64,000 bases of DNA. Source: Desulfobacteraceae bacterium Eth-SRB1 (lineage in GTDB: Bacteria > Desulfobacterota > Desulfobacteria > Desulfobacterales > ETH-SRB1). The notes beneath the pieces are model-generated. The model was not told the DNA's origin. It was given only the letters and a program-made list of their open reading frames with translations, and searched no databases. How positions within the stretch are numbered: position 1 is the first letter of the stretch; every line of letters starts with the position of its first letter. Shown here in pieces: positions 8,684 through 37,908 of the stretch. The stretch lies in contig RPGP01000029.1 of the NCBI GenBank assembly GCA_004193555.1, positions 140,976 to 204,975 on the forward strand. Direction: 5' to 3'. Position numbers and translations under genes: made by a program.

Positions 8684-8820
8684 AGGTTGTTAGGCTGTAG
8701 GCTGAAGGCTGTAGGATATCTCTCAAACATCAAAAGTCGAATTTGGGAATAGTGTGCTTGAATGGCTATGCTATATTATTGGGTTTTGTGAGTTTTTTCC
8801 CTAAAAGCCTTCAGCCTGTC
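8684..8820. repeat. Nested palindromic word-repeat element (arms built of aggctgt/aggctga words)
   Basis: Left arm aggttgttaggctgtaggctgaaggctgtagg, right arm cctaaaagccttcagcctgtc. Same family as 62964-63155. Confidence 0.75.
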
Positions 8821-18711: not shown

Positions 18712-20046
18712 ATGACCAATATTTTATTAATTTCTATTGTCCTTATCTCTATTGCTTCGCTTGTCCTGCTTTTGATTCTCAATAAGGGTAAATCGGATGA
18801 ATGGATAAAAAAGATTGCAGGCCGGTTTGATCTTCTGAAAAACGGACAGGAGGATACCGGCCGCATTGTAAAGGAAGAAATTGCTCTGAACAGGGAGGAA
18901 ACAGCCAGGAATTCTAAAAATGCCAGGGAAGAATTAGGCAGATACCTCAAGGATTCCAGCGATTCCCTTCTTAAGCGGATGACGGAAAATGCCGGAATGC
19001 AGAAAGATCAGCTCGATTCCTTTTCAAAACTGCTGGGAGATATGACCAAACTGCATGAAGAAAAATTCAATGCAATGCGCAGGACACTGGAAAATCAGTT
19101 GAGGTCGCTTCAGGAAAATAACAGCAGGAAGCTGGATCAGATGAGGCTGATTGTTGATGAGAAGCTCCAGTCAACCCTTGAAGCCCGCCTCGGTGAGTCC
19201 TTTAAACAGGTCAGTGAACGGCTTGAGCAGGTATATAAAGGGCTGGGAGAAATGCGCAGCCTGGCTGCCGGTGTGGGTGACCTGAAGAAAGTATTAACCA
19301 ACGTGAAGACGCGTGGTACCTGGGGAGAGATCCAGTTAGGCAATATTCTGGAACAAATTTTAACTCCGGATCAATATGGTGTTAATGTGGCGACAAAGAA
19401 AAACAGCAATGACAGGGTTGAATTTGCCATAAAATTGCCGGGACAGGGCGCTGATAAGGAACAGATTGTCTGGATGCCTATTGACTCCAAATTTCCCCAG
19501 GAGGATTACCAGCGCCTGATAGATGCGCAGGAGGCGGCAGATAAAGAGCTGGCAGACAAGTCGATGAAAAATCTGGAAATCCGTATAAAGGCGGAAGCCA
19601 GGAATATTAAGGAAAAGTATCTTGACCCTCCCAATACAACCGATTTTGCCATTATGTTCTTGCCTGTGGAAGGGTTGTATGCAGAGGTATTACGGATGCC
19701 CGGGTTATGCGATTTTTTGCAGCGGGAATACCGTATTACCGTTACCGGCCCAACAACCCTGGCAGCATTGCTAAACAGCCTCCAGATGGGTTTCAGGACG
19801 CTTGCAATACAAAAGCGTTCCAGCGAAGTCTGGGAACTTCTGGGTGCTGTTAAAACAGAATTTGGTAAATTTGGTGAAGTTCTGGACAAAACCAAGAAAA
19901 AACTTAAGGAAGCTACAAACATTATTGGTCAGGCGGAAGTCCGCACCAGGGCCATTGAAAGAAAGCTTAGGAAAGTCCAGGAAATACCGCAGAACGGATC
20001 TGATGTTGATCAGGATCAAGTTAGCGCACCTTCGGTGCGGACATAA
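18712..20046 (+). CDS. rmuC: DNA recombination protein RmuC
   Basis: N-terminal TM helix, long coiled coil, then TRGTWGEIQLGNILEQ...FAIMFLPVEGLYAE, typical of RmuC. Confidence 0.85.
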   Translation: MTNILLISIVLISIASLVLLLILNKGKSDEWIKKIAGRFDLLKNGQEDTGRIVKEEIALNREETARNSKNAREELGRYLKDSSDSLLKRMTENAGMQKDQLDSFSKLLGDMTKLHEEKFNAMRRTLENQLRSLQENNSRKLDQMRLIVDEKLQSTLEARLGESFKQVSERLEQVYKGLGEMRSLAAGVGDLKKVLTNVKTRGTWGEIQLGNILEQILTPDQYGVNVATKKNSNDRVEFAIKLPGQGADKEQIVWMPIDSKFPQEDYQRLIDAQEAADKELADKSMKNLEIRIKAEARNIKEKYLDPPNTTDFAIMFLPVEGLYAEVLRMPGLCDFLQREYRITVTGPTTLAALLNSLQMGFRTLAIQKRSSEVWELLGAVKTEFGKFGEVLDKTKKKLKEATNIIGQAEVRTRAIERKLRKVQEIPQNGSDVDQDQVSAPSVRT

Positions 20047-20258
20047 GTGCCTAAAGTGAGCTAAAGTGCCTAAAATGCCTAAAGTTGTGGTACGCCTTCG
20101 GCGTGTTAGAGATTTTCAGGGCTTGGTTATAAGTTCAGGTAGAAACAAAGTGAGCAAAATTGTATGGTGAAAAAAATTAAAATTGGCAGCGCCGAAGGTG
20201 CATTCCTTAACTTTAGGCACTTTAATATACTTTAGTTCACTTTAGACACTTTTTACTT
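20045..20258. repeat. Nested palindromic word-repeat element (gtgcctaaag words)
   Basis: gtgcctaaagtgagctaaagtgcctaaaatgcctaaag ... ctttaggcactttaatatactttagttcactttagacac, with inner arms gtacgccttcggcgtg / gcgccgaaggtgc. Confidence 0.75.
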
Positions 20259-20266
20259 ATATAATT

Positions 20267-20980
20267 ATGGATAAAATCATATCAGAAACCAAGGATAAAT
20301 ACATCAAAGCTTTGATGGATATCAGCAGGGCAATAACTTCCGACCTTTACCTTGAAGATATTCTTAGACTGATCGTGATGGTTACCGCCAGGGTTACCGG
20401 GGTTGAAATTTGTTCTTTATGGCTTATTGATGAAACAGTCAGTCCCCCAATGATTCGGCTTAAAGCCACACAGGCAATTGATTCCGATTATGTGCGTGAC
20501 AGATCTTTAAACCTGGATGAAGGTGTGGTCGGCTATGTGGCTACACATAAATCCCCTCTTATTATTAAAGATGTTTTGAAGGAGTCAAAGTTTAAGGAAA
20601 AAGAGATGGCCAGGAAGCTTGGACTTGTATCTATGCTAAGTGTTCCGCTTCAGGTAAAGGATGAAAAGGTGATCGGTGTGTTTAACTGTTTTACGGCACA
20701 CCCTCATAAATTTTCAGAAACAGATGTGAATATGATAACCACGGTTGCAAACCAGGCAGCTCTGGCAATCCTTAATACTGAATTAATAGTTAAAACCAAG
20801 GTTATTCAGGAAGAGCTGGAAACGCGCAAGATGGTTGAGCGGGCCAAGGAAGTACTTATGCATCGCCGCAATAAGACCGGAGAAGAGGCATATTCCTGGA
20901 TTAGAAAACGGAGTATGGATACACGCAAATCCATGCGTTGCGTAGCCGATGCAATTCTGCTTTCAGAAGAGCTCGAATAG
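20267..20980 (+). CDS. GAF + ANTAR RNA-binding antitermination regulator
   Basis: GAF region (SLWLIDE...VVGYVATHKSPLIIKDV) plus a C-terminal ANTAR helix pattern (LETRKMVERAKEVLM...EEAYSWIRKRSMDTRKSMRCVADAIL). Confidence 0.85.
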   Translation: MDKIISETKDKYIKALMDISRAITSDLYLEDILRLIVMVTARVTGVEICSLWLIDETVSPPMIRLKATQAIDSDYVRDRSLNLDEGVVGYVATHKSPLIIKDVLKESKFKEKEMARKLGLVSMLSVPLQVKDEKVIGVFNCFTAHPHKFSETDVNMITTVANQAALAILNTELIVKTKVIQEELETRKMVERAKEVLMHRRNKTGEEAYSWIRKRSMDTRKSMRCVADAILLSEELE

Positions 20981-21056
20981 ATTTGCAAAAAAAAATATCT
21001 TGACATATTTGCTGTGTTTGGCTTAAAAAAATCAGTTTAATAATTTTACGAAAACT

Positions 21057-21109
21057 CTGTACAATGGAGTGCAGAATTTTTTTGAATATGGAAGACAAAG
21101 GCGTCTTTT
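21057..21109 (+). promoter_or_regulatory. Dual hexaloop ANTAR-target RNA (two hairpins, loops AAUGGA and AAAGGC)
   Basis: ctgtac-aatgga-gtgcag (21057-21074) and ggaagac-aaaggc-gtctttt (21090-21109). Both loops have A1 and G4. Confidence 0.7.
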
Positions 21110-21140
21110 CCCTGTAAGAGGATAGACGTCTTTTTTATTT
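21100..21140 (+). terminator. Intrinsic terminator overlapping ANTAR hairpin 2
   Basis: ggcgtcttttc (21100-21110) pairs with ggatagacgtc (21120-21130) with 1 mismatch and 2 GU pairs, followed by ttttttattt. Confidence 0.7.
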
Positions 21141-21174
21141 CTATAACAACTTAGGTAAGGAGGGTAAACAAGTT

Positions 21175-22740
21175 ATGTCATTTAGTAAACCAAATCGTAG
21201 CGCAGCTACAGTTAGTTTAACACGGGTTGATCCGGCTCCTGGGTCCGGCATTTGTGTAACCTGTCTTGATGGTTGTGAGGGGCCGTGTGAAATAGGGCGC
21301 TCTGCCTTGAAGGGACGCGAGATGCTTTATCCGCAACCCTTTGGCAAGGTCACATCAGGTTCGGAAAAGGATTATCCGATCGATTTTTCCCATTTTAATA
21401 TTCAGGGTACCTGTGTTGGAGCGGTTGGAATTGAAGCCGATTCTGATGTCGCCATATTTTCTGCAGTTGACTGTTCAACAGCCGTTGGAAAGGATAGCAG
21501 CATAAAACTTGATTTTCCTGTATTTACAGGCGCTGTTGGATCAACCGAAATTGCCAGGGTCAATTGGGAAGAGATGGCTGTCGGCGCAGCTATATCCGGC
21601 ATTATAGTGGTAGCAGGAGAAAATATATGCGGCATGGATTCGCAGGCCGAGTTTAAAAATGGTAAAATCAGCAAGTCTCCTGAGATGGAGCGCAGGATAG
21701 ACGCCTTTAAAAGATGGTATGACGGCAAGGGCGGCATCATCATTCAAGCTAATGTTGAAGATACAAAGCTTGGTGTGCCGGAATATGTAATAGAAAAGCT
21801 CGGCATAGAGATATTCGAGCTCAAATGGGGCCAGGGCGCCAAAGATATTGGCGGTGAGGTTAAACTGCCAAGCCTTGAGAGAGCATTAGAGCTAAAAAAA
21901 CGAGGGTATATTGTTTTGCCCGATCCGACCAATCCAGCTGCCCAGGAGGCCTTTAAGACAGGTGGAATCACTGAATTTGAAAGACACTCACGACTTGGAA
22001 TGGTTGATGAGGAGTCTTTTCATAAATCTGTTGAATATCTTCGCGGTGTTGGAGCAAAATATGTTACCCTTAAAACTGGTGCTTATCGTCCGGCCGATCT
22101 TGCAAGAGCCATTAAATATGCTTCAGACGCTAAAATAGACATGCTGACTATTGATGGCGCCGGCGGCGGAACAGGTATGAGTCCCTGGAGAATGATGAAT
22201 GAATGGGGCATCCCTACTGTTGAGCTCGAATGTATGGCTTACCAGATGTGTGAACGTCTGAAATCAAAGGGCGCCTATATTCCGCCTATTGCTATTGCCG
22301 GCGGTCTTTCATTAGAAGATCATATATTTAAGGCCATTGCCCTTGGAGCGCCTTATGTCAAGGCTATCTGTCTGGGAAGAGCCATGATGACAGCGGCTAT
22401 GGTGGGAAAAACTCATGGCAAATTAATGGCAGAGAAAATGGACTTGGAAGGGGAAGACATTGAAGCAGGATATCTCAAGCTGTTTGCAGTGGGCGCACAA
22501 TTAAAAGAACGTTTTGGCGCGGATTTCAGCAAACTTCCGGCCGGCGCCATTGGAATGTACTCTTATGTGGATCGCTTGCGCCAGGGCCTGCAGCAGTTTA
22601 TGGCCGGCGCAAGAAAATTTGCTCTTCAGCATGTAGATAGAAACGATCTGGTTGCTTTGACAAGAGATGCGGCTGACATATCAGGCATCCCGTATGTTAT
22701 GGAATCTGATCAAGAGGAAATTGACAAGATACTGGGATAA
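21175..22740 (+). CDS. Glutamate synthase FMN-domain (GltB domain 2) family protein, archaeal split type
   Basis: N-terminal Cys cluster CVTCLDGCEGPCEIG; WGQGAKDIGGEVKL; DGAGGGTGMSPW FMN-site motifs. Confidence 0.8.
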   Translation: MSFSKPNRSAATVSLTRVDPAPGSGICVTCLDGCEGPCEIGRSALKGREMLYPQPFGKVTSGSEKDYPIDFSHFNIQGTCVGAVGIEADSDVAIFSAVDCSTAVGKDSSIKLDFPVFTGAVGSTEIARVNWEEMAVGAAISGIIVVAGENICGMDSQAEFKNGKISKSPEMERRIDAFKRWYDGKGGIIIQANVEDTKLGVPEYVIEKLGIEIFELKWGQGAKDIGGEVKLPSLERALELKKRGYIVLPDPTNPAAQEAFKTGGITEFERHSRLGMVDEESFHKSVEYLRGVGAKYVTLKTGAYRPADLARAIKYASDAKIDMLTIDGAGGGTGMSPWRMMNEWGIPTVELECMAYQMCERLKSKGAYIPPIAIAGGLSLEDHIFKAIALGAPYVKAICLGRAMMTAAMVGKTHGKLMAEKMDLEGEDIEAGYLKLFAVGAQLKERFGADFSKLPAGAIGMYSYVDRLRQGLQQFMAGARKFALQHVDRNDLVALTRDAADISGIPYVMESDQEEIDKILG

Positions 22741-22773
22741 TTTTTGTTTTGACGAGGTCTGAAAGGAGATAAA

Positions 22774-22980
22774 ATGCTTAATGTAATTTGTAAACATAAC
22801 TGCAAGGATTGTTATGCGCTTAGAGTTTGTGCAGTACAGGCCATAAAAGATCAGCAGGGTTCAATCTATGTGGAAACTGATGATTGTATCGGCTGTGGTT
22901 GCTGCAAAACAGCCTGTGTCACCTTTGGTTACAAGGCCCTTGAAGACAAGACACCTGAATGGTTAAAAGGGGCTGCTTAA
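22774..22980 (+). CDS. Small 4Fe-4S ferredoxin-like protein
   Basis: CKDCYALRVC and CIGCGCCKTAC motifs. Confidence 0.65.
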   Translation: MLNVICKHNCKDCYALRVCAVQAIKDQQGSIYVETDDCIGCGCCKTACVTFGYKALEDKTPEWLKGAA

Positions 22981-23078
22981 CCGATTTATTGATTTCGGAA
23001 TGCGGAGTGCGGAATGCAGAGAAAAAATCCGAAATCCGCATTCCGAAATCCAGAATTATAAGACAGGGAGAATAAGAG

Positions 23079-24920
23079 ATGCACGGTTGGATTGGTCGGT
23101 GTCTGAGGGTTAACCTGACTAAAAATGATTTTAAGCTCGAAGAAATTTCTCAGGAACTCATGAATAAATTTTTAGGGGGGCGTGGGCTCGGGGTTAAAAT
23201 TCTTTTCGATGAAATTGATCCCATGGTTGATCCATTATATCCTGACAATAAGCTTATATTTGTTTCAGGCCCGCTTGTAGGCACAGGTGCTGTAACCGGA
23301 GCATCATGCAATGTGATAACAAAGAGCGCTCTTTCAGGGACAATTGCGTGCGCAAAATTGCGAGGGCATTTCGGCGCGGAATTAAAATACTCCGGTCTGG
23401 ATATGATTATCGTGGAGGGCAGGGCTGAATTTCCCGTTATTCTTTCCATTCTTGACGATAAAATTGTCATCCAGCCTGCGCTTGAGTATTGGGGCCGTAC
23501 TACATCTGAAACGGAAAACATGTTTAAAAGCAGCCTGAGCGACAGATGGGCGGCTCGTGACACATATCTCTTATCCATCGGCCCTGCAGGAGAGAAACTT
23601 GTGCCGATGGCTAATGTTATCAACGACGGTTTTTTGTCGGTTGGGGGCGCTGGTATCGGCGCAGTAATGGGCTCTAAAAATCTTAAGGCAATTGCGGTCA
23701 AGGGTAATCACTCGGTGACAGTAGCCGACGGAAACCGTTTTGTGCAGGTTGTAACAACCTTGATCAACAAACTAAACAGCGCACCCCTGACCTCTCAATC
23801 CATGTCTTCCTGGGGTTCCGCTTTTCTTGTAGGTCTTTGTAATCAAAAAGCGATATTGCCGTTTAAGAACTTTCAGAGTTCTTCATTTGAGGAATCAAAA
23901 CAGATTGGAACAGAAGCTCTGTCCAGCGCCTTTGCACTTAGAAGCAGGGGCTGTTTTGCGTGCCCGATTGCATGCATAAAGAAAGCGGATGTGGATAACC
24001 GGTTTTATAAAGGCAAAGGAATGGCTCCAACCTACCTTGCTATTGGCGCTCTGGGACTTAATTGCGGCATTACAGATCTTACCAACATCGGGATAGCCAA
24101 CATGATTTGCGGTGAAATGGGCCTGGATCCTGTTGCAGCAGGTGGAACTATTGCCACTGCCATGGAGCTTGAGAGAAAAGGGCTTTTAACAAAGGATTCT
24201 TTAAAGCTTGATTTGCGGTTTGGTAATGGAGAAGATCTGATCCAGGCGTTAACCCTTATGGCGACAAAAAAAGGGCATGTTAAAAGAATAGGGCGGGGAG
24301 CAAAGGCATTGGCAGAGGAATATGGGCATCCGGAACTTTTTATGGGCGTCAAAAATATACCACTTGCCCCGTTTGACCCACGTGCAATCCAGGGAATGGG
24401 ACTTCACTTCGCAACATCCAATTATGGCCCACACCACCTCTATGCATACACTTTTATTGATGAAGTCCTGAATGTACATGAAAAATCGGATCCATGGACT
24501 ACGGAAGGAAAACCTGAACTGGTAAAGCGGTTCCAGGATATTACTGCTGTGATGGATTCATTAGGGTTGTGCAACTGGTCGTTGATGGGGCTTAAATTCA
24601 ATAATTTTGTACCCTTGATTAATAGCTGCTTAGGCACAAGCTACAAGGCTGAAGATTTACTCCAGACAGGTGAGAGGGTCTGGAATCTGGAGAGGCTGTT
24701 CAATATGCGAGCCGGGTTTAATCGAAGTCATGATAGCCTGCCTGAGAGATTTTATAATGAGCCGATTGAAGATGGGCCTGCCAAGGGGCAAATCAGCAAG
24801 GCCAATGAAATGCTGGATGACTACTATGGACTTCGTGGTTGGGATAATAAAGGCCAGCCGTCCGCAGAGATCTTAAGAGCATTAGAACTGGAGAGTAGAG
24901 ATGCCAAGAATAAAGATTGA
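23079..24920 (+). CDS. aor: Tungsten-type aldehyde:ferredoxin oxidoreductase (AOR family)
   Basis: N-terminal GRCLRVNLT...GGRGLG, the CFACPIAC 4Fe-4S motif, and GLCNW near the C-terminus. Confidence 0.85.
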   Translation: MHGWIGRCLRVNLTKNDFKLEEISQELMNKFLGGRGLGVKILFDEIDPMVDPLYPDNKLIFVSGPLVGTGAVTGASCNVITKSALSGTIACAKLRGHFGAELKYSGLDMIIVEGRAEFPVILSILDDKIVIQPALEYWGRTTSETENMFKSSLSDRWAARDTYLLSIGPAGEKLVPMANVINDGFLSVGGAGIGAVMGSKNLKAIAVKGNHSVTVADGNRFVQVVTTLINKLNSAPLTSQSMSSWGSAFLVGLCNQKAILPFKNFQSSSFEESKQIGTEALSSAFALRSRGCFACPIACIKKADVDNRFYKGKGMAPTYLAIGALGLNCGITDLTNIGIANMICGEMGLDPVAAGGTIATAMELERKGLLTKDSLKLDLRFGNGEDLIQALTLMATKKGHVKRIGRGAKALAEEYGHPELFMGVKNIPLAPFDPRAIQGMGLHFATSNYGPHHLYAYTFIDEVLNVHEKSDPWTTEGKPELVKRFQDITAVMDSLGLCNWSLMGLKFNNFVPLINSCLGTSYKAEDLLQTGERVWNLERLFNMRAGFNRSHDSLPERFYNEPIEDGPAKGQISKANEMLDDYYGLRGWDNKGQPSAEILRALELESRDAKNKD

Positions 24921-25275
24921 TCACAATAAGTGCACCGGTTGCAGGCATTGCGAAACCGCCTGTTCTCTCAATCATGTGGCCGGAGTCGCCAATCCGAGAA
25001 GATCTCGAATAAGAGTTTTTAGAGAAGGCACAACCTATTTTCCGACTATTGCCGGTCCTTTTGTGGATGCTGCCTGCACCTCAAAAAATGATCTGATTAT
25101 CGGTGATCATACTTACGATATGTGTCTGATCTGCAGGGCATCCTGTCCTGAGAAGCCATTTTTTATTGAAGCTGAAACAGGTTTCCCTCTAAAATGCGAT
25201 TTTTGCGGCATTCCTCCAAGTCCTTCCTGCGTAAGGTGGTGCAATAGCGGGGCATTGGAGCTGGTGGAAGATTAA
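24901..25275 (+). CDS. 4Fe-4S dicluster electron-transfer protein (AOR-associated)
   Basis: CTGCRHCETAC, CLICRASCP and CDFCG motifs. It overlaps the AOR 3' end by 20 nt. Confidence 0.7.
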   Translation: MPRIKIDHNKCTGCRHCETACSLNHVAGVANPRRSRIRVFREGTTYFPTIAGPFVDAACTSKNDLIIGDHTYDMCLICRASCPEKPFFIEAETGFPLKCDFCGIPPSPSCVRWCNSGALELVED

Positions 25276-25505
25276 ATATGTGGTCGAGTGGTGGTTGGGC
25301 CGTCCTACGTGGCGACTGGTCGAGCGGTGAATTGGTCGAGTGGTGAATTTGGTCAAAAGAACAAATTAAAAGATGAACGTCCAACATCCAACATCGAATT
25401 TTCAATAAGGTATTCTGCCAATTTGTAAACCGGCGGAGAGAAGCGATTTCATCATTCGATGTTCGACGTTGGATGTTCGATGTTGGACGTTCAAAAAAAT
25501 TCACC
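25276..25505. repeat. Nested palindromic word-repeat element (ggtcgagtggtg and ccaacatccaacatcg words)
   Basis: aacgtccaacatccaacatcgaa ... ttcgatgttcgacgttggatgttcgatgttggacgtt. Outer ggtcgag(t/c)ggtgaat repeats. Confidence 0.75.
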
Positions 25506-25622
25506 TATATCCTATGATACCGAATTCATTAGGCATAAAATGGAAATTTCTATACTATCAAGTTAAGAAAAATGATTTGAACCCTGAACCTCTGAACGGT
25601 TACTTTTATAATTTCTTGTACA

Positions 25623-28600
25623 ATGAAAAATAATAATAGACATAACAATCTTGTTGGAGCTGTAATGGTGGTTGGCGGAGGAATTGCCGGCATCCAGGCA
25701 TCTCTCGATCTTGCCGATTTGGGATATTTTGTTTACCTGGTAGAAAAAAGCGCTTCTATTGGCGGAGTTATGGCCAGGCTGGACAAAACTTTTCCGACCA
25801 ATGATTGCGCCATCTGAATTCTTGCGCCCAAGCTGGTCGAGGCCGGTCGGTCTCCAAATATTAAGATTATCACCAATGCGCAGCTCATGTCAGTGGATGG
25901 CAATGCCGGAAATTTTATCGCCGGCGTCCGTTGCATTCCAAGATATGTGGACGAAAAACTTTGCACAGCCTGTGGAACCTGCACCAGTTACTGTCCTGTA
26001 ACCATCAAGGATCAATTTAACGACGGACTCTCTTTAACAAAAGCCATACATATAGATTATCAGCAGGCCATACCCGCGGCAAACGTTGTGAATGCAGACT
26101 TTTGTCTATTTTTGACAAGGCGTGAATGCAAACAGTGTGAGAGGGTCTGCCTTGCTAATGCTATCGATTTTAAACAGCAGCCGCAGGTTATTGATATAAA
26201 TGTCGGCGCTATTATTCTGTCTCCCGGCTTTGGCAGGATAGATAAAAAAGTCTTATGTAAATATGGTTACGGGATATCTCCCGATGTAATGACCGGTATG
26301 GAATTTGAGCGCATAACATCGGCTTCCGGGCCGTTCATGGGCAAAATTGTCAGGCCCTCAGATGGCCGGCATCCTGAACGGATTGCCTTTTTTCAGTGTA
26401 TCGGCAGTAGAGATCTGCCAAGTGGCAATGGATATTGTTCATCAGTTTGCTGTATGTATGCCATCAAGGAGGCGCTTGTTGCCAAAGACCATGCCCCGGA
26501 TATTGATATAGCCATTTTTTACATGGATATGCGAACCCAGGGCAAGGAATTCGATTATACAAGGATCCGGGCCAGGGAGAAGGGCATCCGTTTTATAAGG
26601 AGTCGCGTCGGCGGTGTTCACGCCAAAGACAAAATTTTCGAAGTTTTTTATGTAAATGAGCAGGGGGAGCATATAAGAGAAGATTTTGATATGATAGTTC
26701 TTCCCGAAGGTCTTGAATCACCAAAGGATGCTAAACTGCTGGCAGGAGCAGCCTGTATTGATTTAAATAAGTATGATTTTTGCATGACCAGCTCATATGC
26801 TCCTCTGGAAGCAAATCGCTCGGGAATATTTGTGGCAGGGGCGTTTCAGGGGCCAAAAGATGTGCCTGAGAGCGTGACAGATGCAAGCGGCGCAGCGGCC
26901 CTTGTCTCGGAACTGCTTTGCAAAGCCAGGGATACCCAGGTTAAAGCACGAATTTATCCCGAAGAGAAAGAGATCGAAAAGGAGCTTCGCATTGGAGTGT
27001 TTATTTGCTCCTGTGGAAGTAATATCGGTGGTGTGGTTGATGTGCCGGCTGTTGCCGGGTATGCAGCCGGTCTTGAAAATGTCGTCGCAGTTGATACAAA
27101 TCTTTATAGCTGTGCTCAAAACACTCAGGAGGCAATTACTGAAAAGATCAAGGTAAATGGATTAAATCGTGTAGTTGTTGCGGCCTGTAGCCCGAGAACA
27201 CACGAGCCCTTATTCCAGGAGACACTTAAAAACGCCGGATTAAACCGGAGCCTGTTTGAAATGGCCAATATCAGGGATCATTGCTCATGGGTTCATGTAA
27301 ATACTCCTGAGGAGGCTACTGAGAAATCAAAGGACCTTGTAAGAATGGCTGTTGCCAAGGCGAGCCTGCTTCAACCTATGAGAGAACAGGAAATTCCCGT
27401 GATACCAAAAGCTCTCGTTATTGGAAGCGGCATTTCCGGGATGACGGCTGCTTTAAGTATCGCCAGGCAGGGTTTTGAGTGTTATCTTGTTGAAAAATCA
27501 CACAAACTCGGAGGCAATATAAAACGTCTTCGGTATCTGATAACCGGCGATGACCCCGGTAGAATTTTTACTGAGCTGGAAAGTGATGTCAGATCAAACC
27601 CTTTAATACATGTATATGAGAATGCTGTTATAGATAACATAACAGGTTATATCGGAAATTTTGCTACTACTTTGCAGATGCCGGAACATTCAGAAATGTT
27701 GGAGCATGGCGTAGTTGTTATAGCAACAGGCGGAATGCCTTATGAGCCCAAACAATACCTTTATGGAAAATCAAAACAGGTTGTCACACAGCTTGAACTG
27801 GAAGAAATGATAGCCGGCGGTAAAGGATTAGAAAATGTTCATGATATCGTAATGATACAGTGTGTCGGTTCCAGAGGTGAAGATCTGTCTTATTGCAGCA
27901 AGGTGTGTTGTTCACAGGCCATAAAAAATGCTTTAAAGATTCTGGAATATAATCCAGCGGCAAATATTACAATCCTTTACAGAGATATCCGCACTTATGG
28001 ATTTGATGAAGACTACTATCAATTAGCCAGGGAAAAGGGGGTAACTTTCATCCGTTTTGAAAAAGATTATCCTCCTGAAGTGACTGAAAAGGATGGTTTT
28101 ATCAATGTAGATGTTTTTGACAGGATATTGGGGGCAAAATTATCTATAAAACCGGATCTAATTATCCTTAGTGTAGGGATAACTCCAGCTCCTGCGCAGG
28201 ATCTGGCTAAAATGCTCAAGATTCCTTTAACCCGGGACGGGTTTTTTCTGGAGGCACACCCAAAACTCAGGCCGGTTGAATTTTCAGTGGAGGGAATCTA
28301 CCTTTGCGGCGCAGCCCATTCACCAAAACCTGTATCAGAGTCTATTGCCCAGGCAAAGGCAGCGGCAGGTAAAGCTTGCGTTCCGTTGACCAGGGGGTTT
28401 GTTGCTGTAGAACCTATTGTATCATCTGTTGATATGGATGCCTGTATCGGATGCAGGATTTGTGAAAGCCTGTGCCCGTATGCAGCTATCAGGATGATAA
28501 AGGCAGGCAAAAGGAAAAAGGCCGAAACTATTTCCGCTTCGTGTAAGGGATGTGGGATATGTGCTTCACACTGCCCGGCAATGGCTATATCAATGGCTGG

Positions 28601-28649
28601 ATTCACTAACGAACAGATTTTGTCACAAATACATGCTTTTGGAGAATGA
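25623..28649 (+). CDS. hdrA: HdrA-like heterodisulfide reductase flavoprotein with two FAD domains; selenocysteine at in-frame UGA 25815-25817
   Basis: ORFs 25623-25817 and 25887-28649 are in the same frame. Reading through gives [18 protein letters not shown], matching the conserved HdrA CSMC-ILxPK site with Cys replaced by Sec. GGGIAGIQ and GSGISGM dinucleotide folds; several CxxCxxCxxxCP motifs. Confidence 0.8.
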
Positions 28650-28652
28650 ATT

Positions 28653-29300
28653 TTGAGCAGTATGATGAAAAATAAATCATTTGAACCAAAAATACTCGGC
28701 TTTCTTTGCAACTGGTGTTGTTATGCAGCCGCCGATTCCGCCGGCATTGCACGATTTCAATATCCGCCCAATATCCGCGTCGTAAGAGTGATGTGTACCG
28801 GAAGAATAGATCCTCTGTTTATTGTCGAAGCCTTTTCTGCCGGCGCAGACGGCGTATTTGTAGGCGGGTGACAGCTCGGTGAATGTCATTACCAGGTTGG
28901 TAATTATGACGCAATGGTAACTGCCTGTTTTATTCAGGAAATATTAAACTGCTTGCAGATAAATTCAGATAGATTGCTTCTGGATTGGGCATCTGCGGCT
29001 GAAGCGCCGCTGTATGTTGAGTTAATAACCGCATTTACAAACCGGATAAAAGAATTAGGGCCTTTAGGGCATGTTGAAGGAATAGAACTTAATGATTTGC
29101 AATCAAAACTTTCAGCGGCCGGCAGGGCTGTTAAAAGTATTAAAATGCGGACACGATTCGCAAAGTTAACCCGGTATTTTCGTGAGTCAAAAGACTACTC
29201 TAAAAGTGTTATTCAGGCCAGAATTGTCGAAAAGCTAAGGGGTCCAATCTGCCAGGAAATTGAAAAGCAGGAAGTAGCAGTTCGGAGGATGGATAATTGA
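28653..29300 (+). CDS. mvhD: MvhD-like (methyl-viologen hydrogenase delta / Hdr-associated) protein; selenocysteine at in-frame UGA 28869-28871
   Basis: ORFs 28653-28871 and 28914-29300 share a frame. Reading through gives [22 protein letters not shown], matching the MvhD GC-HxGDCHY motif. The start may be the ATG at 28662. Confidence 0.8.
28885..28910 (+). promoter_or_regulatory. Candidate bacterial SECIS hairpin 14 nt downstream of the mvhD UGA
   Basis: gtcattacc-AGGUU-ggtaattatgac: a 6-bp upper stem plus a bulged lower stem, with GGU in the apical loop. Confidence 0.45.
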
Positions 29301-31075
29301 CAATTACTTCTCATAAAGTGGACCCGCGATTCAAATTTGAAGTAGCCTCCATGGCAGGTGGTGAACTGGTCAAAGGTTGTTTTGACTGCGGAACATGCAC
29401 TGGTGTATGCCCTGTCAGTGAAGTTGAACCAGGCTTTGATCCAAGAAAAATCCTTCATATGATTCGGCTCGGGCTTAAAGAGCAGGTCCTGAGTTCTACT
29501 GCTATATGGTTTTGCACACACTGTGACACATGCGCATTGGTATGTCCGCAGAATGTGCGGTTCAGCAGCATTGTGGATGTTCTTCGCGAATTAGCTGTCA
29601 AGGAAGGTTATGCGGAACTCAAAACAAAGGAACCATTTGCCACAAGCCCGTGCAAGGCAGCCTGTCCCGCCCATATAAGCATACCTGGTTTTATTGCGGC
29701 AGTTTTACAGGGGAAATACAGAGAAGGCCTGAGGCTGATAAAAGAAGAGATGCCCTTTCCGGCAATTTGCGGTCGTGTCTGTCCCCACCCATGCGAAGCG
29801 GCATGCAACAGGAACAGTTCAGATAAACCTGTAGCAATTGAGTATTTAAAACGTTTTCTGGCTGATGAGGATATTTTGTCGGATGAATCATATATCCCTC
29901 AAAAAAAGCAAAGTAGAACAGAAAAAATCGGTGTTGTCGGATCCGGGCCGGCTGGCTTAACTGTCGCTTATTATCTGTCTATTGAAGGTTATCCTGTTAC
30001 GGTTTTTGAAAAACTCCCTGTAGCAGGCGGCATGATGGCTGTTGGCATACCGGAATTCCGCCTTCCACGAAATATTCTCAACGCTGAAATAGATATTATC
30101 AAGAAATTAGGCGTTGATATCAAACTCAATTTTTCAATCGGAAAGGATTGCAGCCTTGCCGAGCTGCAAAAGAATTATAGAGCCGTTTTTATTGGTGCAG
30201 GATGTTGCAAATCAATGAAACTCGGTATTGCCGGTGAAGATGTCAGAGAAGATGAGGATACAGGTATTATTGACGGTCTTATGTTCTTACAGGATATACA
30301 TCTCGGAAACCTTCCTGCTTCCAGAGGCAGGCTAATTGTTATCGGCGGCGGCAATACGGCGGTTGATTGCGCGCGTGTAGCTATACGGCTGGGTTATAGA
30401 AATGTTGCTGTTTTGTATAGAAGAACCAGGGAGGAGATGCCGGCAAACTCATGGGAGGTTGATGAAACAATTGAGGAGGGAATAGACATTCAGTTTTTGA
30501 CGGCGCCGGTGCGAATTATATCGGATGACGGGAAGGTGTCAGGCGTGGAATGTGTTCGAATGGAATTGGGTGAGCCGGATGAATCAGGAAGACGAAGACC
30601 TGTGCCTGTCCAGGGATCTGAATTTATCGTTAAAACAAACGTTATAGTATCGGCTATCGGACAGACGCCTGATTTGAAATGCATGACTGACAAATGCGAA
30701 ATTAATATTTCAAACAGGGGGCTTGTTGCGGCTGATCTTCAAACAGGCCTTACAAATATTCCCGGAATATTTGCCGGAGGTGATGTGGTCTCAGGCCCCA
30801 GAACGGTCGTGGAAGCGGTTGCGTTTGGGAAAAGAGCGGCGTTAAGTATTGATAAATATTTAAGAGGTAAAGATATTAGCTCGGGACGCAAAATGAATTG
30901 GACTGGAATTAAACTGATATCTAATGAGATAATATATAAGGAAAGGGAGCAAATGCCCCGGCTTCCTCTTGCCGAGTGTACAAAAAGTTTTAAAGAAATA
31001 GAGTCAGGTTTTAACAGGGAACAGGCCAAAAGAGAAGCCGAACGCTGTTTAAAAATATGTGGTCTTCAAAAATGA
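29297..31075 (+). CDS. HdrC-like 4Fe-4S domain fused to a GltD/NfnB-like NAD(P)H:FAD oxidoreductase
   Basis: CFDCGTCTGVCP...CTHCDTCALVCP (HdrC-like); CKAACPAH...CGRVCPHPCEAACNR and VGSGPAGL, GGGNTAVDCAR (GltD-like). The TTG start overlaps the mvhD stop; an alternative ATG is at 29351. Confidence 0.8.
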   Translation: MTITSHKVDPRFKFEVASMAGGELVKGCFDCGTCTGVCPVSEVEPGFDPRKILHMIRLGLKEQVLSSTAIWFCTHCDTCALVCPQNVRFSSIVDVLRELAVKEGYAELKTKEPFATSPCKAACPAHISIPGFIAAVLQGKYREGLRLIKEEMPFPAICGRVCPHPCEAACNRNSSDKPVAIEYLKRFLADEDILSDESYIPQKKQSRTEKIGVVGSGPAGLTVAYYLSIEGYPVTVFEKLPVAGGMMAVGIPEFRLPRNILNAEIDIIKKLGVDIKLNFSIGKDCSLAELQKNYRAVFIGAGCCKSMKLGIAGEDVREDEDTGIIDGLMFLQDIHLGNLPASRGRLIVIGGGNTAVDCARVAIRLGYRNVAVLYRRTREEMPANSWEVDETIEEGIDIQFLTAPVRIISDDGKVSGVECVRMELGEPDESGRRRPVPVQGSEFIVKTNVIVSAIGQTPDLKCMTDKCEINISNRGLVAADLQTGLTNIPGIFAGGDVVSGPRTVVEAVAFGKRAALSIDKYLRGKDISSGRKMNWTGIKLISNEIIYKEREQMPRLPLAECTKSFKEIESGFNREQAKREAERCLKICGLQK

Positions 31076-31086: not shown

Positions 31087-31509
31087 CTATAATACCGCAA
31101 CCTTTGGGGCAGTACCTTCTTGAACCCGTGTTTTACCGCGGCGGATCTTGACACGTGGAAAATCGATAGCTGCTTTTTGGGAATAGTCTAATTCCTTTCT
31201 TCCTCTCAATAAGGCTATAAGCAAACCCTCTTCGCGACAGCGACCTTCATGAGCACATTTCATTCGAGTTTTTTCAAAGTAATTAAGGGGGGCAAGGCAG
31301 TTGAATGCACTGGCATTTACGCTGTCTTCCGAATGAGCCATACCATCGTAAACCAGCTTCTTTTTCTTTCGCAGTATTTCTACCCCCAGGGCAAGATCGG
31401 GGCAATCATCCTTAAATCTGGGACATGAGAAGCAGCGCTCATAAAATTTCAGAGGGGCCTGACAGTCAAATTCGAGGGCATGGATTATTCCTGACGTGGC
31501 ATTTTTCAT
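31087..31509 (-). CDS. Cysteine-rich hypothetical protein with an internal duplication
   Basis: Two modules: ALEFDCQAPLKFYERCFSCPRFKDDC... and ASAFNCLAPLNYFEKTRMKCAHEGRC... Confidence 0.45.
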   Translation of the reverse strand: MKNATSGIIHALEFDCQAPLKFYERCFSCPRFKDDCPDLALGVEILRKKKKLVYDGMAHSEDSVNASAFNCLAPLNYFEKTRMKCAHEGRCREEGLLIALLRGRKELDYSQKAAIDFPRVKIRRGKTRVQEGTAPKVAVL

Positions 31510-31869: not shown

Positions 31870-33171
31870 CTACTTGATCTTTATCCAGAGCAACCTGGCT
31901 AAACCAGGTCCGGGATTTTTCCACTGGGTAGGTATATCGGAGGATAGATAGATAACATCGCGCGCACGAACTGTGTATACAGCCTTATCTAATTTAAGCT
32001 GTAATTTGCCTGACAATAAATAACCGATCTCTTCGCCTTTATGGATGAAGAAATGGGAAGGCAGGGTTTTTTGAGGCGGAATTTTAATTATATATGGTAT
32101 TGCTTTAGGCATAAAGTCCACAGGGGTTAACAGGCTTGCATAAATACTTCCATCCGGCATGTCGGGAAAGTTTACATCAACGGCTTCAGCGTAAGGAAAA
32201 ATCATCCTGTTTGTCATGTCTGCTGATTTTTGGAAAAATGAGCCTACTTCGACGCCAAGAACTTCTGCTATTTTAAGCAGTCCGGGCAACGAAGGATAAA
32301 TTAAATTGCTTTCAATTTGAGAGATCGAACTCGGTGTCACACCTGTGAGTTTTGCCAGCTCTGTTTGGCTCAAGCCTCGCTTTATGCGGAATTCTTTCAG
32401 GCGCAATCCAAGATCAAACCATCCTGTTGAAGGCTTTTCCGAATCAAAGGTAATTCTCAAATCTTTGCTCCGGTAATTAACCGCTTTATTCAGGGTGTCA
32501 AGATCGCGTTTTTCAGCCTTTAAGATTGTCAAAGAGGTTTTGCCTTTCCTGGCTGAAAGCTCAAAGGCGACCTGTGCAATCTGATTGATCTTGGCTCTGA
32601 GACGTGGAGTATGAGCTTTTTTTTCCATTACCCAGTAGGCGATAGTATTCAATTCGTATAATAACGGACAGGAGTGGGAATAAAAATTAATGATATGTTC
32701 CTCCCCGCCCCATAATTCCTGCATTCCGGTCAGGCTTTCGAAAACCAACCGAACATCGCCTGTCGTTGTTTTGTGGATTTCAAAAAAGGCATCTAACACG
32801 CTTTCTACTTTTCGAGGGTCGTTTAAACTAATAATCCGGCATGGGTATTTAACGCTATATTTTTCATAGAAATTTAGAAAAACATCGTAGCCCCCTCCTT
32901 TGCCATAAGTAAAGCAGTCAACAATGGTTAATTGCTTATAATCAGCCAGATGTCCGAGTTTTTCCAGAAGATTTTTCGGGGAACGGTCGAAACTGAAGTA
33001 GATGATTGATTTGTTTTGCGCCTGGGAGGTCTGGATAAAGTTCAGGCAAAATACAGATGCCAGGCTGCCGGCATCATCTTGCCATACTACGTTGTCACCG
33101 ATATAAAGCCCACCAAGAAGGCGATCAAGATGGCTTATTCCGGAAGCCACTCGTATTTTTTCTGAAACCAT
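31870..33171 (-). CDS. Regulator with a degenerate KaiC/RecA-like domain + XRE HTH + cupin
   Basis: SGISHLDRLLGGLYIGDNVVWQDDAGS (KaiC-like fold with no GxxGxGKT); LSQTELAKLTGVTPSSISQIESN (XRE); C-terminal cupin (HFFIHKGEEIGYLLSG). Start taken at MVSEK; the 33258 ATG lies inside the glnA coding sequence. Confidence 0.65.
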   Translation of the reverse strand: MVSEKIRVASGISHLDRLLGGLYIGDNVVWQDDAGSLASVFCLNFIQTSQAQNKSIIYFSFDRSPKNLLEKLGHLADYKQLTIVDCFTYGKGGGYDVFLNFYEKYSVKYPCRIISLNDPRKVESVLDAFFEIHKTTTGDVRLVFESLTGMQELWGGEEHIINFYSHSCPLLYELNTIAYWVMEKKAHTPRLRAKINQIAQVAFELSARKGKTSLTILKAEKRDLDTLNKAVNYRSKDLRITFDSEKPSTGWFDLGLRLKEFRIKRGLSQTELAKLTGVTPSSISQIESNLIYPSLPGLLKIAEVLGVEVGSFFQKSADMTNRMIFPYAEAVDVNFPDMPDGSIYASLLTPVDFMPKAIPYIIKIPPQKTLPSHFFIHKGEEIGYLLSGKLQLKLDKAVYTVRARDVIYLSSDIPTQWKNPGPGLARLLWIKIK

Positions 33172-33229
33172 TGAACCCTCATATTTAATATGATAAAAGT
33201 CTTTTCGGTTTTTTCCTAAAATATTCGGT

Positions 33230-34642
33230 CTATATGTCAAAGTAAAGAAAGAATTCATGTGGATGCGGACGAAGTTTAACAGGATTTACTTCGTGTTCAG
33301 TCTTGTATTCAATCCACGTATCAATAACATCCTGAGTAAAAACATCACCTTTCAGCAGGAAAGCGTTGTCTTCTTTTAAGGCGGTAAGAGCCTCTTCGAG
33401 AGAGCCCGGAGCAGATGGTATATTGGCAAGCTCTTCCGGCGGAAGGCCGTATATGTCTTTGTCTAACGGTTCACCCGGATCAATCTTGTTTTCGATGCCG
33501 TCTAATACAGCCATAAGAATAGCTGAAAAGGCCAGATAACCGTTACAGGACGGGTCAGGAGTTCTGAATTCAATCCGTTTTGCCTTTGGTGATGCAGAGT
33601 ACATCGGGATGCGGATTGCCGCGCTCCGGTTGCGGCTTGAGTAGGCCAGATTTACAGGCGCCTCAAAGCCGGGGACAAGCCGTTTATATGAGTTTGTAGT
33701 TGGATTCGTAAGCGCACAAAGCGCCCTGCAGTGTTTCAATATTCCTCCGATTCCGTAAAGAGCTTCCTGAGAAACCCCGGCATACTTATCACCTGCAAAT
33801 AAGGGCTCTCCATCTTTCCAGATGCTGATATGTGTATGCATTCCGGTGCCGTTATCTTCAAAAAGAGGTTTCGGCATAAATGTGACCGTACGATTATCCC
33901 GTTGGGCCACATTTTTCAGCACATACTTAAACCACATGAGCTGGTCACCCATTTGAACAAGCGGTTTAAAGCGCATATCAATCTCCGCCTGGCCGGCTGT
34001 TGCGACTTCATGATGCTGACATTCAACATCTATCCCCAGTTTTTCAAGTGTAAGAAGCATTTCGGTTCGAAGATCCTGGAACTTATCGGTGGGCGGAACA
34101 GGAAAGTATCCCTGTTTATGTTTGGGCTTATACCCTAAATTAGGAAATTCTTCCCTGCCGCTGTTCCAGATTCCTTCTACAGAATCAATTTCATAGAAGG
34201 ATCCGTTTGTTGAGGAATCAAAACGGACATCATCGAAGATAAAAAATTCAGCTTCAGGACCGATGTATGCTGTGTCGCCAATTCCGCTGCCTTTCAGGTA
34301 TAGTTCAGCCTTTTTAGCAATATAGCGCGGGTCGCGAGAATAAGGTTCACGAGTAAGCGGGTCGGCTATATCTCCGATAAGAACCAGAGTTGGAACCTCA
34401 AAAAATGGATCCATTTTTGCTGTTGAAGGGTCTGGTATCACAAGCATGTCGCTGGCATGAATCGGCTGCCATCCCCTGATGCTTGAACCGTCAAACCCGA
34501 AACCATCCTCAAAGCCGGACTCATTAAGTTCGCATATAGGCACGGTAAAATGCTGCCATACCCCCGGAAAGTCAAGAAATCGTAAATCAACAACCCTGGC
34601 CTCATTTTCTTTTGCCATTTCCAATACCTGTTTTGGTGTCAT
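33230..34642 (-). CDS. glnA: Glutamine synthetase type I, copy 1
   Basis: [33 protein letters not shown] and [11 protein letters not shown] motifs. Start at MTPKQ with RBS caggagat. Confidence 0.93.
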
Positions 34643-34708
34643 AATTTGAATCTCCTGATTATATAAATTGTTAAATATTTGAGTCCACTCGACCACTCAA
34701 CCACTTAA

Positions 34709-35071
<363 letters not shown>

Positions 35072-37545: not shown

Positions 37546-37908
<363 letters not shown>

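Follow-up and report, generated by a model that had tools for sequence, protein, structure and literature searches.

Class II benzoyl-CoA reductase (BamBCDEFGHI, BCRII; 'Class IV WOR') is, judging by gene content and homology, the closest known architecture to the gene block described here, which occupies positions 20267-31075 of a 64,000-nucleotide stretch (the window) of contig RPGP01000029.1 from Desulfobacteraceae bacterium Eth-SRB1. According to a cryo-EM preprint on BCRII (10.64898/2026.04.10.717634), BamGH is where ferredoxin and NADH are confurcated; BamE, a fused HdrA dimer, is fed from there by BamI and by BamF, an extended MvhD that contains selenocysteine (Sec); low-potential electrons travel via BamC to the tungsten site and high-potential electrons leave via BamD. 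WOR class IV and the Bfu family have been described in PMC13328260 and PMC9304861, where WOR1-Bfu couples aldehyde oxidation to reducing NAD+ and ferredoxin at the same time. The Eth-SRB1 block appears to represent something new, namely a bifurcating tungsten architecture of the Bam/Hdr type coupled to GltBl, a widespread nitrogen-linked relative of the FMN domain of glutamate synthase (GltS).

The block shares with Bam an AOR-family tungstopterin subunit and a BamC-type polyferredoxin, a fused HdrA dimer with Sec (as BamE) and an extended MvhD with Sec (as BamF), a likeness judged by length, the HdrA matches in three stretches and the conserved TGA codons. Common to both are also an HdrC-type two-cubane element and, in the nearest relatives of the block, NuoEFG/Bfu-type input genes; these relatives match Bam gene for gene (B, C, E, F, (D), G, H, I). 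The differences are that the tungsten subunit falls in the AOR clade and not in the BamB clade, that the window lacks the CCG/HdrB-like portion of BamD, and that an NfnB-type module replaces BamGHI, with no NuoEFG. Two extra conserved genes, encoding GltBl and the ferredoxin-like Fd68, head the operon, which is controlled by nitrogen-type regulators and has no aromatic-catabolism genes nearby. Like the HdrABC-MvhAGD and Fdh-Hdr-Fmd complexes of methanogens, the block has an HdrA-type FAD core (PDB 5odc, 1e-192), an MvhD adaptor and HdrC-type clusters, Sec at the same HdrA and MvhD positions as in Sec-using methanogens and, as in Hdr-Fmd, a polyferredoxin leading to a W/Mo-pterin enzyme. Unlike them, it has no HdrB, hydrogenase or Fdh, its HdrA is a fused dimer, and GltBl instead of the heterodisulfide is the candidate high-potential acceptor. 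WOR1-Bfu and AorABC (WOR classes III-IV) resemble it in their AOR-clade large subunit, polyferredoxin small subunit and NAD(P)-linked module, with Bfu-type NuoEFG homologues occurring in its relatives; the interposed HdrA/MvhD module and the loss of Glu313 set it apart, and the link to GltBl and nitrogen regulation is new.

Neither the 2026 WOR classification (PMC13328260) nor PMC9304861 mentions a GltB-like partner or nitrogen control, and the terms glutamate synthase, Glu_synthase, GltB and GOGAT are absent from those of their supplementary files that were examined by text search. The main text and one supplementary file of the 2022 Bfu survey likewise mention neither glutamate synthase nor GltB. 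In a 2009 report on D. autotrophicum, an hdr locus was drawn with 'ferredoxin, Fe/S protein, Aor5' without functional comment (PMC2702500). We found no published description of a cluster of GltB-like, AOR and HdrA genes, an absence that is no proof, as the subscription-journal literature was thinly covered. A first-pass annotation of the same DNA had not recognised the combination as a described enzyme system; in this it agrees with our search, but it left the close analogue, class II benzoyl-CoA reductase, unnamed.

Open reading frame (ORF) calls, Pfam and NCBIfam count nine co-oriented genes on the + strand between 20267 and 31075, of which eight are itemised below with the leader RNA and the spacers (L numbers denote loci of the survey described afterwards):

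20267..20980, + strand, GAF-ANTAR antiterminator protein (Pfam GAF_2 75.5 bits, ANTAR 63.5 bits)
21056..21075, + strand, leader hairpin P1 (7-bp stem, hexaloop AATGGA)
21089..21109, + strand, leader hairpin P2 (hexaloop AAAGGC, core GACAAAGGCGTC; 3' arm shared with the terminator)
21097..21139, + strand, intrinsic terminator of the leader (stem AAAGGCGTCT/AGACGTCTTT, then a T-run; excludes P2)
21175..22740, + strand, GltBl, an FMN/Fe-S TIM-barrel protein of 521 aa (partial match to Pfam PF01645 Glu_synthase, 56.9 bits)
22774..22980, + strand, Fd68, a ferredoxin-like protein of 68 aa with nine Cys in two clusters (weak Fer4 matches)
22986..23055, no strand, 28-nt inverted repeat in the Fd68-AOR spacer, without a T-run (the matching spacer of L085 is only 30 nt)
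23079..24920, + strand, AOR-family tungstopterin subunit (AFOR_N 382 bits, AFOR_C 220 bits)
24901..25275, + strand, BamC-like polyferredoxin of 124 aa (best PDB match BamC, 4z3w_E, 1.4e-30; AorA/WorS 1.8e-10)
25276..25622, no strand, repeat-rich 347-nt spacer (25-nt inverted repeat at 25375-25478, direct repeats)
25623..28649, + strand, fused double HdrA, BamE-like, 1008 aa (NCBIfam HdrA2 976 bits, PDB 5odc_A 1e-192, three stretches each)
28662..29300, + strand, extended MvhD, BamF-like, 212 aa (VhuD 119.6 bits)
29297..31075, + strand, HdrC-like::NfnB/GltD-type fusion, 592 aa (Pfam Fer4_8/17, Fer4_20, Pyr_redox_2)

All genes named in the first-pass annotation are present on the + strand at the same or close coordinates, and the co-oriented block that it placed behind a GAF-ANTAR regulator and an RNA switch is borne out, the leader showing compensatory changes.

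To survey the distribution of the block, one genome per species was scanned with GltBl, which gave 80 loci, and tblastn was run with all window proteins. Fd68 comes after GltBl in 29 of 75 loci, and wherever AOR is present (22 loci) it does so without exception. Fd68 and then AOR come next in 21 of the 66 loci that offer at least 2.5 kb downstream of GltBl (16 of 61 when loci fetched later from the AOR side are left out). The polyferredoxin is found in every AOR locus with sequence to spare, and HdrA follows in every locus that has a Glu313-less AOR and enough downstream sequence. The order GltBl-Fd-AOR-polyferredoxin-HdrA recurs in about 20 loci, including metagenome-assembled genomes (MAGs) labelled Desulfobacterales, Thermodesulfobacteriaceae, Nitrospirota and Deferribacteres. 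Approached from the AOR side, where the nearest 120 homologues are all at least 72% identical, GltBl-Fd68 lies directly upstream in five out of five contexts read and GAF-ANTAR in four of the five. Sequence identity is also high in individual components: 74-94% for Fd68 in the closer relatives (L017, L085-L089) and 77-91% for the polyferredoxin in syntenic loci. In L085 the operon is tightly packed, with spacers of 12-46 nt. This recurrent order disposes of the objection, raised in the first-pass annotation together with a call for a synteny survey, that the genes might not be co-conserved. On comparative grounds the block is a real, conserved, ANTAR-gated and Sec-dependent operon and no chance neighbourhood.

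The GltBl protein exceeds the gathering cutoff of PF01645 (20.4 bits), the match being confined to model positions 185-310 of 369, and no NCBIfam model matches it. The FMN-domain motifs of GltS occur in it in order (GE..., K-x-x-QGAK-x-x-GGE, DG-x-GGGTG-x-SP, AGGL...LGA), pairing AGENxCGMD of GltBl with SGEGGE of GltS, KWGQGAKDIGGE with KxAQGAKPGEGG and DGAGGGTGMSP with GYDGGTGASP. GltBl therefore shares with GltS in its various forms (GltBD, Fd-GltS, archaeal split GOGAT) the Pfam match and the order of the motifs, and it also sits with glnA, amtB, PII and nitrogen regulators. It differs in that the CX5CX4C motif of the 3Fe-4S cluster after the last barrel strand is missing, an N-terminal CX2CX3CX3C cluster (C27-x2-C30-x3-C34-x3-C38) is present, and neither a glutaminase nor a GXGXG partner is encoded in the operon. 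Of the 3Fe-4S motif, C399, its first Cys, is all that is kept, and all 22 aligned members read AIC(L/M)GRAxxTAAMVG at that site. C27, C30, C34 and C38 are invariant in the alignments; C80, C152 and C399 are invariant in the alignment of 22 sequences and at least 90% conserved in a wider one. Searches of the PDB with GltBl (phmmer and family profile, E <= 10) returned no GltS and only de novo TIM barrels, and hhalign against E. coli GltB aligned 72 columns at a marginal 28% probability. The AlphaFold2 model has a pLDDT (predicted local distance difference test) of 68.9, with the N-terminal 96 residues, including the Cys cluster, not modelled. Its top 50 Foldseek hits comprise lactate oxidase, IDI-2, DHODH and IMPDH and no GltS, to be read against the moderate quality of the model. 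As the model is moderate and the hits are generic FMN barrels, no active-site inference was drawn from it. Taken together, the motifs and the Pfam match indicate kinship between GltBl and the FMN domain of GltS, a tie that is real but remote. The stand-alone GltB FMN protein with Cys cluster and neighbouring ferredoxin of the first-pass annotation thus exists, with the reservations that it is only remotely GltS-like and is devoid of the 3Fe-4S motif.

The GltBl family is compact and isolated (1112 of 1.84 billion representatives match at E <= 1e-3), and its members share 66-95% identity across Thermodesulfobacteriota, Dehalococcoidia, Nitrospirota, Actinomycetota, Ammonifex, Poribacteria, Armatimonadota, Elusimicrobia and Omnitrophica. 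Unbiased clustering of its neighbours yielded GAF-ANTAR, NrpR (15 loci), a KaiC-HTH-cupin regulator (24 loci), glnA, amtB and PII, as well as NifA-like genes, glutamate dehydrogenase (GDH) and NadE. GltBl is linked to nitrogen across phyla. In Dehalococcoidia, Nitrospirota and Actinomycetota, NuoE/F/G-like genes stand directly after GltBl, which marks it as an acceptor for NADH-type modules. Operons of Dehalococcoidia comprise NrpR, a HisF-like gene, GltBl and NuoE/NuoF/NuoG-like genes (L052, L056, L057, L065, L066, L078; about 8.4-12.5 kb); in Nitrospirota and Actinomycetota GltBl precedes NuoEFG-like genes of the Bfu type, with a BfuA-like subunit of up to 896 aa (L070, L077, L079, L071). 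These GltBl-NuoEFG operons look like a Bfu-family enzyme with GltBl as a third module.

Canonical GOGAT genes lie beside GltBl in six loci: a full gltB-gltD pair in L083 and an archaeal-type Fer4+FMN subunit in L045, L048, L064, L074 and L087, the last of which also has a GXGXG::GltD gene. The glutaminase and GXGXG domains of L083 and L087 belong to this separate canonical GOGAT. GltBl is therefore not merely a local substitute for GOGAT. In L087 (1-7256 and 16881-21815) a series of glutamine amidotransferase genes (asnB, hisH/hisF, carA/carB and guaA) flanks the cluster together with the archaeal-type split GOGAT, whose GXGXG::GltD fusion measures 776 aa, the whole forming a 'glutamine super-locus'. 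A PurF-like class II amidotransferase/phosphoribosyltransferase gene (DDSIVRGS) follows the operon in L088 (18229-19707) and occurs near GltBl in L003, L009, L025 and L030. This PurF-like protein was considered as a missing glutaminase and rejected: the window holds no homologue, and the L088 copy starts MDGIVG, with Asp for the nucleophile Cys1. Within the window, as the first-pass annotation had stated, no Ntn glutaminase or GXGXG domain is present; tblastn with E. coli GltB found only a weak FMN stretch (E = 0.2).

The tungsten subunit has its best PDB match in 1aor (529 bits) and by this comparison belongs to the true AOR clade; BamB (4z3w_A) scores 139 bits, and on these scores the reading as a BamB ortholog was rejected. 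It keeps the Fe-S Cys residues and both pterin motifs (CFACPIAC, EMGLDP, DSLGLC). In a residue alignment with four solved AORs, the catalytic Glu313 (P. furiosus numbering) is replaced by Leu320 (PEYE to PTYL), and His448 is kept within a loop changed from NRGGCH to NYGPHH. The loss of Glu313 and the loop change recur in 14 of 14 HdrA-linked orthologs and in 117 of the 120 nearest homologues, where position 313 is Leu, Trp or Met. In L039 and L041, which have no HdrA, the AOR is divergent (42% identity) and retains Glu313. With the catalytic Glu gone, aldehyde oxidation of the ordinary kind becomes less likely. Thus the tungsten-type AOR with its polyferredoxin, as annotated in the first pass, holds as to clade and partner, with the amendment that its catalytic Glu is gone.

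The true start of HdrA is at 25623 and not at the ORF start 25887; the protein contains two FAD units and reads through an in-frame TGA. This Sec codon (25815-25817) lies in TNDCAI-U-ILAPK and is followed by a SECIS-like (selenocysteine insertion sequence) hairpin at 25839-25854; that of MvhD (28869-28871) lies in GG-U, with a hairpin at 28888-28904. TGA is kept at the same codon of the HdrA motif FPTNDCxx-TGA-ILxPK in 14/14 orthologs and of the MvhD motif GG-TGA-xxGECHY in 9/9, and a small conserved hairpin with GGU in its loop follows each TGA at 20-25 nt (GAGGCC-GGUC-GGUCUC in HdrA, CAUUACC-GGUCC-GGUAAU in MvhD). Minimum free energy (MFE) folding 3' of the two TGAs was no better than in shuffles (z = +0.96 and -0.35), so that the assignment of Sec, which the first-pass annotation had also made, is based on the conserved position of the TGA and on the hairpins, folding energy alone being insignificant. 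The leader and the SECIS-like motifs were found by a custom scan; at gathering thresholds Rfam matched nothing in the whole window, neither a curated ANTAR target nor a SECIS.

In the last gene of the block an HdrC-like two-cubane domain (about residues 20-110) precedes an FAD-NAD(P)H domain of NfnB/GltD type. Its best PDB scores are 458 bits for 9bov, 342 for NfnB (4ylf_B), 237 for GltD (2vdc_G) and 69 for HdrC (8rvu_c). Identification of the C-terminal domain as the GOGAT beta subunit GltD was rejected, NfnB/Stn-type chains scoring 342-458 bits versus 237-241 for GltD chains. No NfnA partner accompanies this NfnB-like module. The fusion is also found in L088 and L089 (64% identity). In most relatives MvhD is followed by a stand-alone HdrC-like gene and then by NuoE-, NuoF- and NuoG-like genes (L004, L008, L015, L038, L073, L085). 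The parts list (HdrA, MvhD, NAD(P)H module) matches a flavin-based bifurcating complex, as the first-pass annotation had read it, but that annotation's pairing of GltB-FMN with GltD as the two halves of GOGAT has to be abandoned, as the pairing is not conserved, the domain is closer to NfnB and NuoEFG-like genes occur in L085.

A comparison with L085, the nearest relative, in which HdrC and NuoEFG-like genes stand in place of the NAD(P)H domain of the fusion, divides the block in two. The ANTAR protein and AOR are 92-93% identical between the two loci and GltBl 92.9% over its best-matching stretch, whereas HdrA and MvhD are 52-55% identical to L085 but 64-70% to L088 and L089; the HdrA-MvhD-HdrC-NAD(P)H half was therefore swapped between lineages as one cassette, with the repeat-rich spacer of 25276-25622 as its probable junction. 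L017 and L087 end at HdrA, MvhD and HdrC being found only with an NAD(P)H module. In L014 (15554-18109) the genes after HdrA encode a membrane Fe-S protein of 560 aa, DsrM/NarI-like, and a protein of 289 aa with a CCG domain; this DsrM/K-like membrane pair replaces MvhD and the NAD(P)H module, which suggests a quinone-linked version. The spacer repeats of the window (20040-20260, 22986-23055, 25280-25345, 25375-25478) have inverted arms of 28 and 25 nt and hold short direct repeats (TGGTCGAGTGGTG; CTAAAGTG-type) with no counterpart in the compact L085 operon. Possible explanations for these repeats are REP-like insertions, sites of RNA processing and scars left by recombination.

The block is preceded by a genuine ANTAR antiterminator leader. 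The GAF domain of the regulator most resembles the one at the N-terminus of NifA (NCBIfam nifA N-terminal region, E = 1.4e-14), and an ortholog lies upstream of GltBl on the same strand in 13 of the 68 loci with enough upstream sequence. Both hexaloops of the 194-nt leader carry the ANTAR signature, A at position 1 and G at position 4, and the 3' arm of P2 is at the same time the 5' arm of the terminator. The leader folds at -30.1 kcal/mol (MFE, z = -4.59), and the arrangement of two 7-bp hexaloop hairpins with a downstream T-run occurs once in the window, compared with about 0.3 times per shuffle. The same arrangement precedes GltBl in L004, L005, L006, L008, L013, L017, L085, L088 and L089. 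Over the ten leaders compared, pairing in P1 reaches 94% and three of its pairs show compensatory changes; the core and loop of P2 are invariant; and the terminator stem is 86% paired versus 42-75% when the partners are slid. No second copy of the P2 core exists in the window, and other copies of the ANTAR target do not exceed chance. In sequence the P2 core, GACAAAGGCGTC, is similar to CAGGCAANGGCGCC, the target of GnfR in the nitrogen-fixation regulon of Geobacter, where ANTAR control of nitrogen-fixation genes has been described (PMC2995071). The ANTAR domain and the dual A1/G4 hexaloop overlapping a terminator are thus as in GnfK/GnfR, AmiR, NasR and EutV, and the nitrogen-regulon setting is as in GnfK/GnfR. 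It differs from these systems in its sensor, a NifA-like GAF in place of a REC, NIT or AmiC-controlled one, and in that the sole target seen in the window is this operon.

Our preferred reading, held tentatively and at somewhat less than even confidence, is that one nitrogen-gated operon encodes a complex of tungsten, selenium, flavin and Fe-S centres, built like Bam, with different catalytic ends and a wiring that bifurcates electrons from NAD(P)H. A conserved front module (GltBl, Fd68, Glu313-less AOR, BamC-like polyferredoxin) is joined to a cassette at the back that comprises the fused HdrA and the MvhD, both with Sec, HdrC and an NAD(P)H module, the last of which is NfnB-type here and NuoEFG/Bfu-type in the nearest relative. 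Under nitrogen limitation, high 2-oxoglutarate would cause the GAF domain to activate ANTAR, P2 would be stabilised and the terminator bypassed. Electrons from NAD(P)H would pass through the variable module to the HdrC clusters and MvhD and on to the bifurcating FAD of HdrA. The polyferredoxin would hand the low-potential electron on to tungsten, where it would serve a reduction near or below -500 mV. The high-potential electron would take the route of Fd68 and the N-terminal Cys cluster and, on reaching the FMN of GltBl, would drive an exergonic reductive amination, most likely of 2-oxoglutarate with NH3 to glutamate, which is a plausible candidate reaction. Parsimony leads to a bifurcating core with two outputs, because GltBl, Fd68, AOR, polyferredoxin and HdrA are invariant; MvhD and HdrC co-vary with the variable NAD(P)H module and are therefore assigned to the input, the HdrC clusters being moreover fused to that module. 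The potential of the acid/aldehyde couple is about -0.58 V and that of 2-oxoglutarate + NH4+/glutamate about -0.14 V, as is that of CoM-S-S-CoB, which drives canonical Hdr; the physiological E' of NADPH is about -0.37 V. We infer, without counting it as evidence, that the mean of the two proposed output potentials is close to the potential of NADPH. That the locus represents a new class of bifurcation for nitrogen assimilation is a larger claim, which we consider unlikely. In such a class, GOGAT-related reductive amination would act as the exergonic pull, in the role that heterodisulfide reduction has in methanogens, for an NAD(P)H-driven tungsten reduction below about -500 mV at an AOR-type site altered to carry out a reductive or non-aldehyde reaction, under a GAF-ANTAR switch of the 2-oxoglutarate type.

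Several points weigh against this reading. The wiring of the complex and both substrates are inferred. GltBl resembles GltS only remotely, the operon encodes no glutaminase, and the presence of GltBl beside canonical GOGAT in several loci may mean that its substrate is not 2-oxoglutarate. GltBl genes are mostly without AOR or Hdr, which makes AOR/Hdr accessory and not obligatory to GltBl. HdrC-type clusters carry the high-potential output in Hdr and Bam, and their assignment to the input here could be wrong. Spacers of 98 and 347 nt, with strong hairpins and promoter-like matches, interrupt the operon in the window, so that co-transcription of its back half with the front half is presumptive.

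Some of the same observations lend themselves to a different arrangement, in which the tungsten subunit oxidises an aldehyde-like substrate, an AOR-polyferredoxin-HdrA-MvhD-NAD(P) unit makes reduced ferredoxin and NAD(P)H in the manner of WOR1-Bfu, and GltBl-Fd68 is a separate ferredoxin-dependent amination enzyme, co-regulated with that unit or fed by it. The place of the AOR in the true AOR clade (1aor, 529 bits), the WOR1-Bfu precedent of passing aldehyde electrons to NAD+ and ferredoxin (PMC9304861, PMC13328260) and the many GltBl genes without AOR are in its favour. So are L039 and L041, where GltBl-Fd68-AOR-polyferredoxin occurs without Hdr genes and with Glu313 in place, so that the AOR there can only be a donor. 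It has to contend, however, with the loss of Glu313 and the altered NRGGCH loop in each HdrA-linked AOR, with a polyferredoxin that is BamC-like and not AorA/WorS-like, and with an operon in which neither a transporter nor an enzyme that would generate an aldehyde is encoded; a single ANTAR leader and a gene order with GltBl that is strictly kept across lineages imply more than loose co-regulation. We regard it as somewhat unlikely. Most removed from our preferred reading would be the absence of any functional link, with GltBl-Fd68 brought next to an unrelated AOR/Hdr unit of energy metabolism by the history of the genome at this place. The spacers that separate the sub-blocks in the window, rich in repeats and with promoter-like sites, fit this, as does the D. 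autotrophicum hdr locus with its 'ferredoxin, Fe/S protein, Aor5' as an energy-metabolism context (PMC2702500). The synteny disfavours it, with the same order in about 20 loci, including Thermodesulfobacteriaceae, Nitrospirota and Deferribacteres MAGs, and GltBl-Fd68 directly upstream in 5/5 look-ups from the AOR side; the private active-site signature of the AOR clade is a further argument, and mere adjacency is highly improbable.

The altered tungsten active site, which suggests a non-standard substrate, and the invariant pairing of GltBl and AOR with HdrA would also suit a tandem chemistry, in which the two bifurcation outputs serve successive steps on one substrate: at very low potential, a carboxylate (or amide) would become an aldehyde (or imine) at the tungsten site, and GltBl would reductively aminate or reduce this product to an amine (R-COO- + NH4+ + 2 NAD(P)H -> R-CH2-NH3+). 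Imine reduction is established chemistry for GltS-type FMN sites, and the potentials of the two steps, about -0.58 V for acid/aldehyde and about -0.1 V for imine/amine, bracket NAD(P)H. GltBl at 66-80% identity, however, works without AOR in most lineages, for example directly with NuoEFG, and its substrate therefore cannot depend on the tungsten step. To our knowledge, no acid-to-amine route exists in nitrogen assimilation, and the neighbours indicate no candidate substrate. This tandem is improbable. A catabolic role, with GltBl running in the oxidative direction, as an FMN-dependent dehydrogenase of amines or amino acids that sets NH3 free, the tungsten enzyme oxidising the aldehyde and Hdr distributing the electrons, appears quite improbable. 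It would accord with the classic control of nitrogen-scavenging catabolic operons by ANTAR regulators (AmiR, EutV, NasR), with the PutA-like logic of a flavin TIM-barrel dehydrogenase next to an aldehyde oxidoreductase, and with the adjacent PuuR-like HTH-cupin regulator. The assimilatory neighbours (glnA, amtB, PII, GDH, NadE) speak for the opposite direction, though, and genes for a transporter or specific to a substrate are missing from the operon; that GltBl is so extremely conserved from phylum to phylum suggests a central metabolite, and the tungsten subunit is without the catalytic Glu that aldehyde oxidation needs.

If the modelled complex is real, 2-oxo acid amination would join the short list of high-potential partners that drive flavin-based bifurcation, and the low-potential electron economy of energy-starved anaerobes would have a direct tie to nitrogen assimilation. 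After BamB, the AOR clade without Glu313 would be the second tungsten oxidoreductase with a chemistry beyond ordinary aldehyde oxidation. The GltBl family itself, almost always found beside nitrogen regulators and with no assigned reaction, marks a considerable gap in the picture of nitrogen metabolism in anaerobes. The cassettes that replace one another on the input side (NfnB-type, Bfu/NuoEFG-type, DsrMK-like or none) amount to a natural experiment in the rewiring of bifurcating modules.

Two further genes directly downstream of the block are of note:

31087..31509, - strand, Cys-rich protein of 140 aa (no Pfam or NCBIfam match; twice-repeated F-x-C-x-A-P-L motif)
31870..33258, - strand, regulator with KaiC/RecA-like, HTH_3 and C-terminal cupin domains (Pfam; PuuR-like HTH-cupin)

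The internally duplicated motif of the 140-aa protein reads F-(D/N)-C-x-A-P-L-(K/N)-(F/Y)-(Y/F)-E, and homologues adjoin GltBl-Fd68 on either strand in L003 (11990-12382), L009 (11877-12263), L017 (11292-11684) and L088 (19704-20120). The KaiC-HTH-cupin regulator, near GltBl in 24 loci, is among its commonest neighbours across lineages.

The first-pass annotation had placed the block inside a nitrogen regulon. It does adjoin nitrogen genes (two glnA, two PII, amtB and glnD), but these are convergent, on the - strand, and as RmuC, a phosphatase-like ORF, polyketide synthase (PKS) and restriction genes lie upstream, the block stands at the edge of the nitrogen cluster and not within it. The glnA and PII genes form two tandem pairs of the same orientation (33230-35047 and 35793-37884, - strand; glnA products of 488 and 485 aa, PII of 112 aa each), followed by amtB and glnD. 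Downstream come nifA, encoded on the + strand, and at a greater distance nifH and a nifD-like gene; in the stretch 57726-59631 a gene for a class I glutamine amidotransferase of 259 aa is directly upstream of nifH, and a radical-SAM gene (60570-61442) separates nifH from the nifD-like gene. An IS200/Y1 transposase gene (44401-44835, + strand) abuts a 226-aa ORF (44832-45512, - strand) that has only a partial GAF and a PEP-utilisers_N domain and looks like a truncated ptsP (EI-Ntr) gene; the insertion has possibly disrupted this ptsP-like gene. Positions 1-15356 of the window are unrelated to nitrogen metabolism and encode RhuM, a helicase, a type I restriction R subunit with an inserted DUF559 and, on the - strand, a 2178-aa PKS (KS-AT-ACP-KR-DH).

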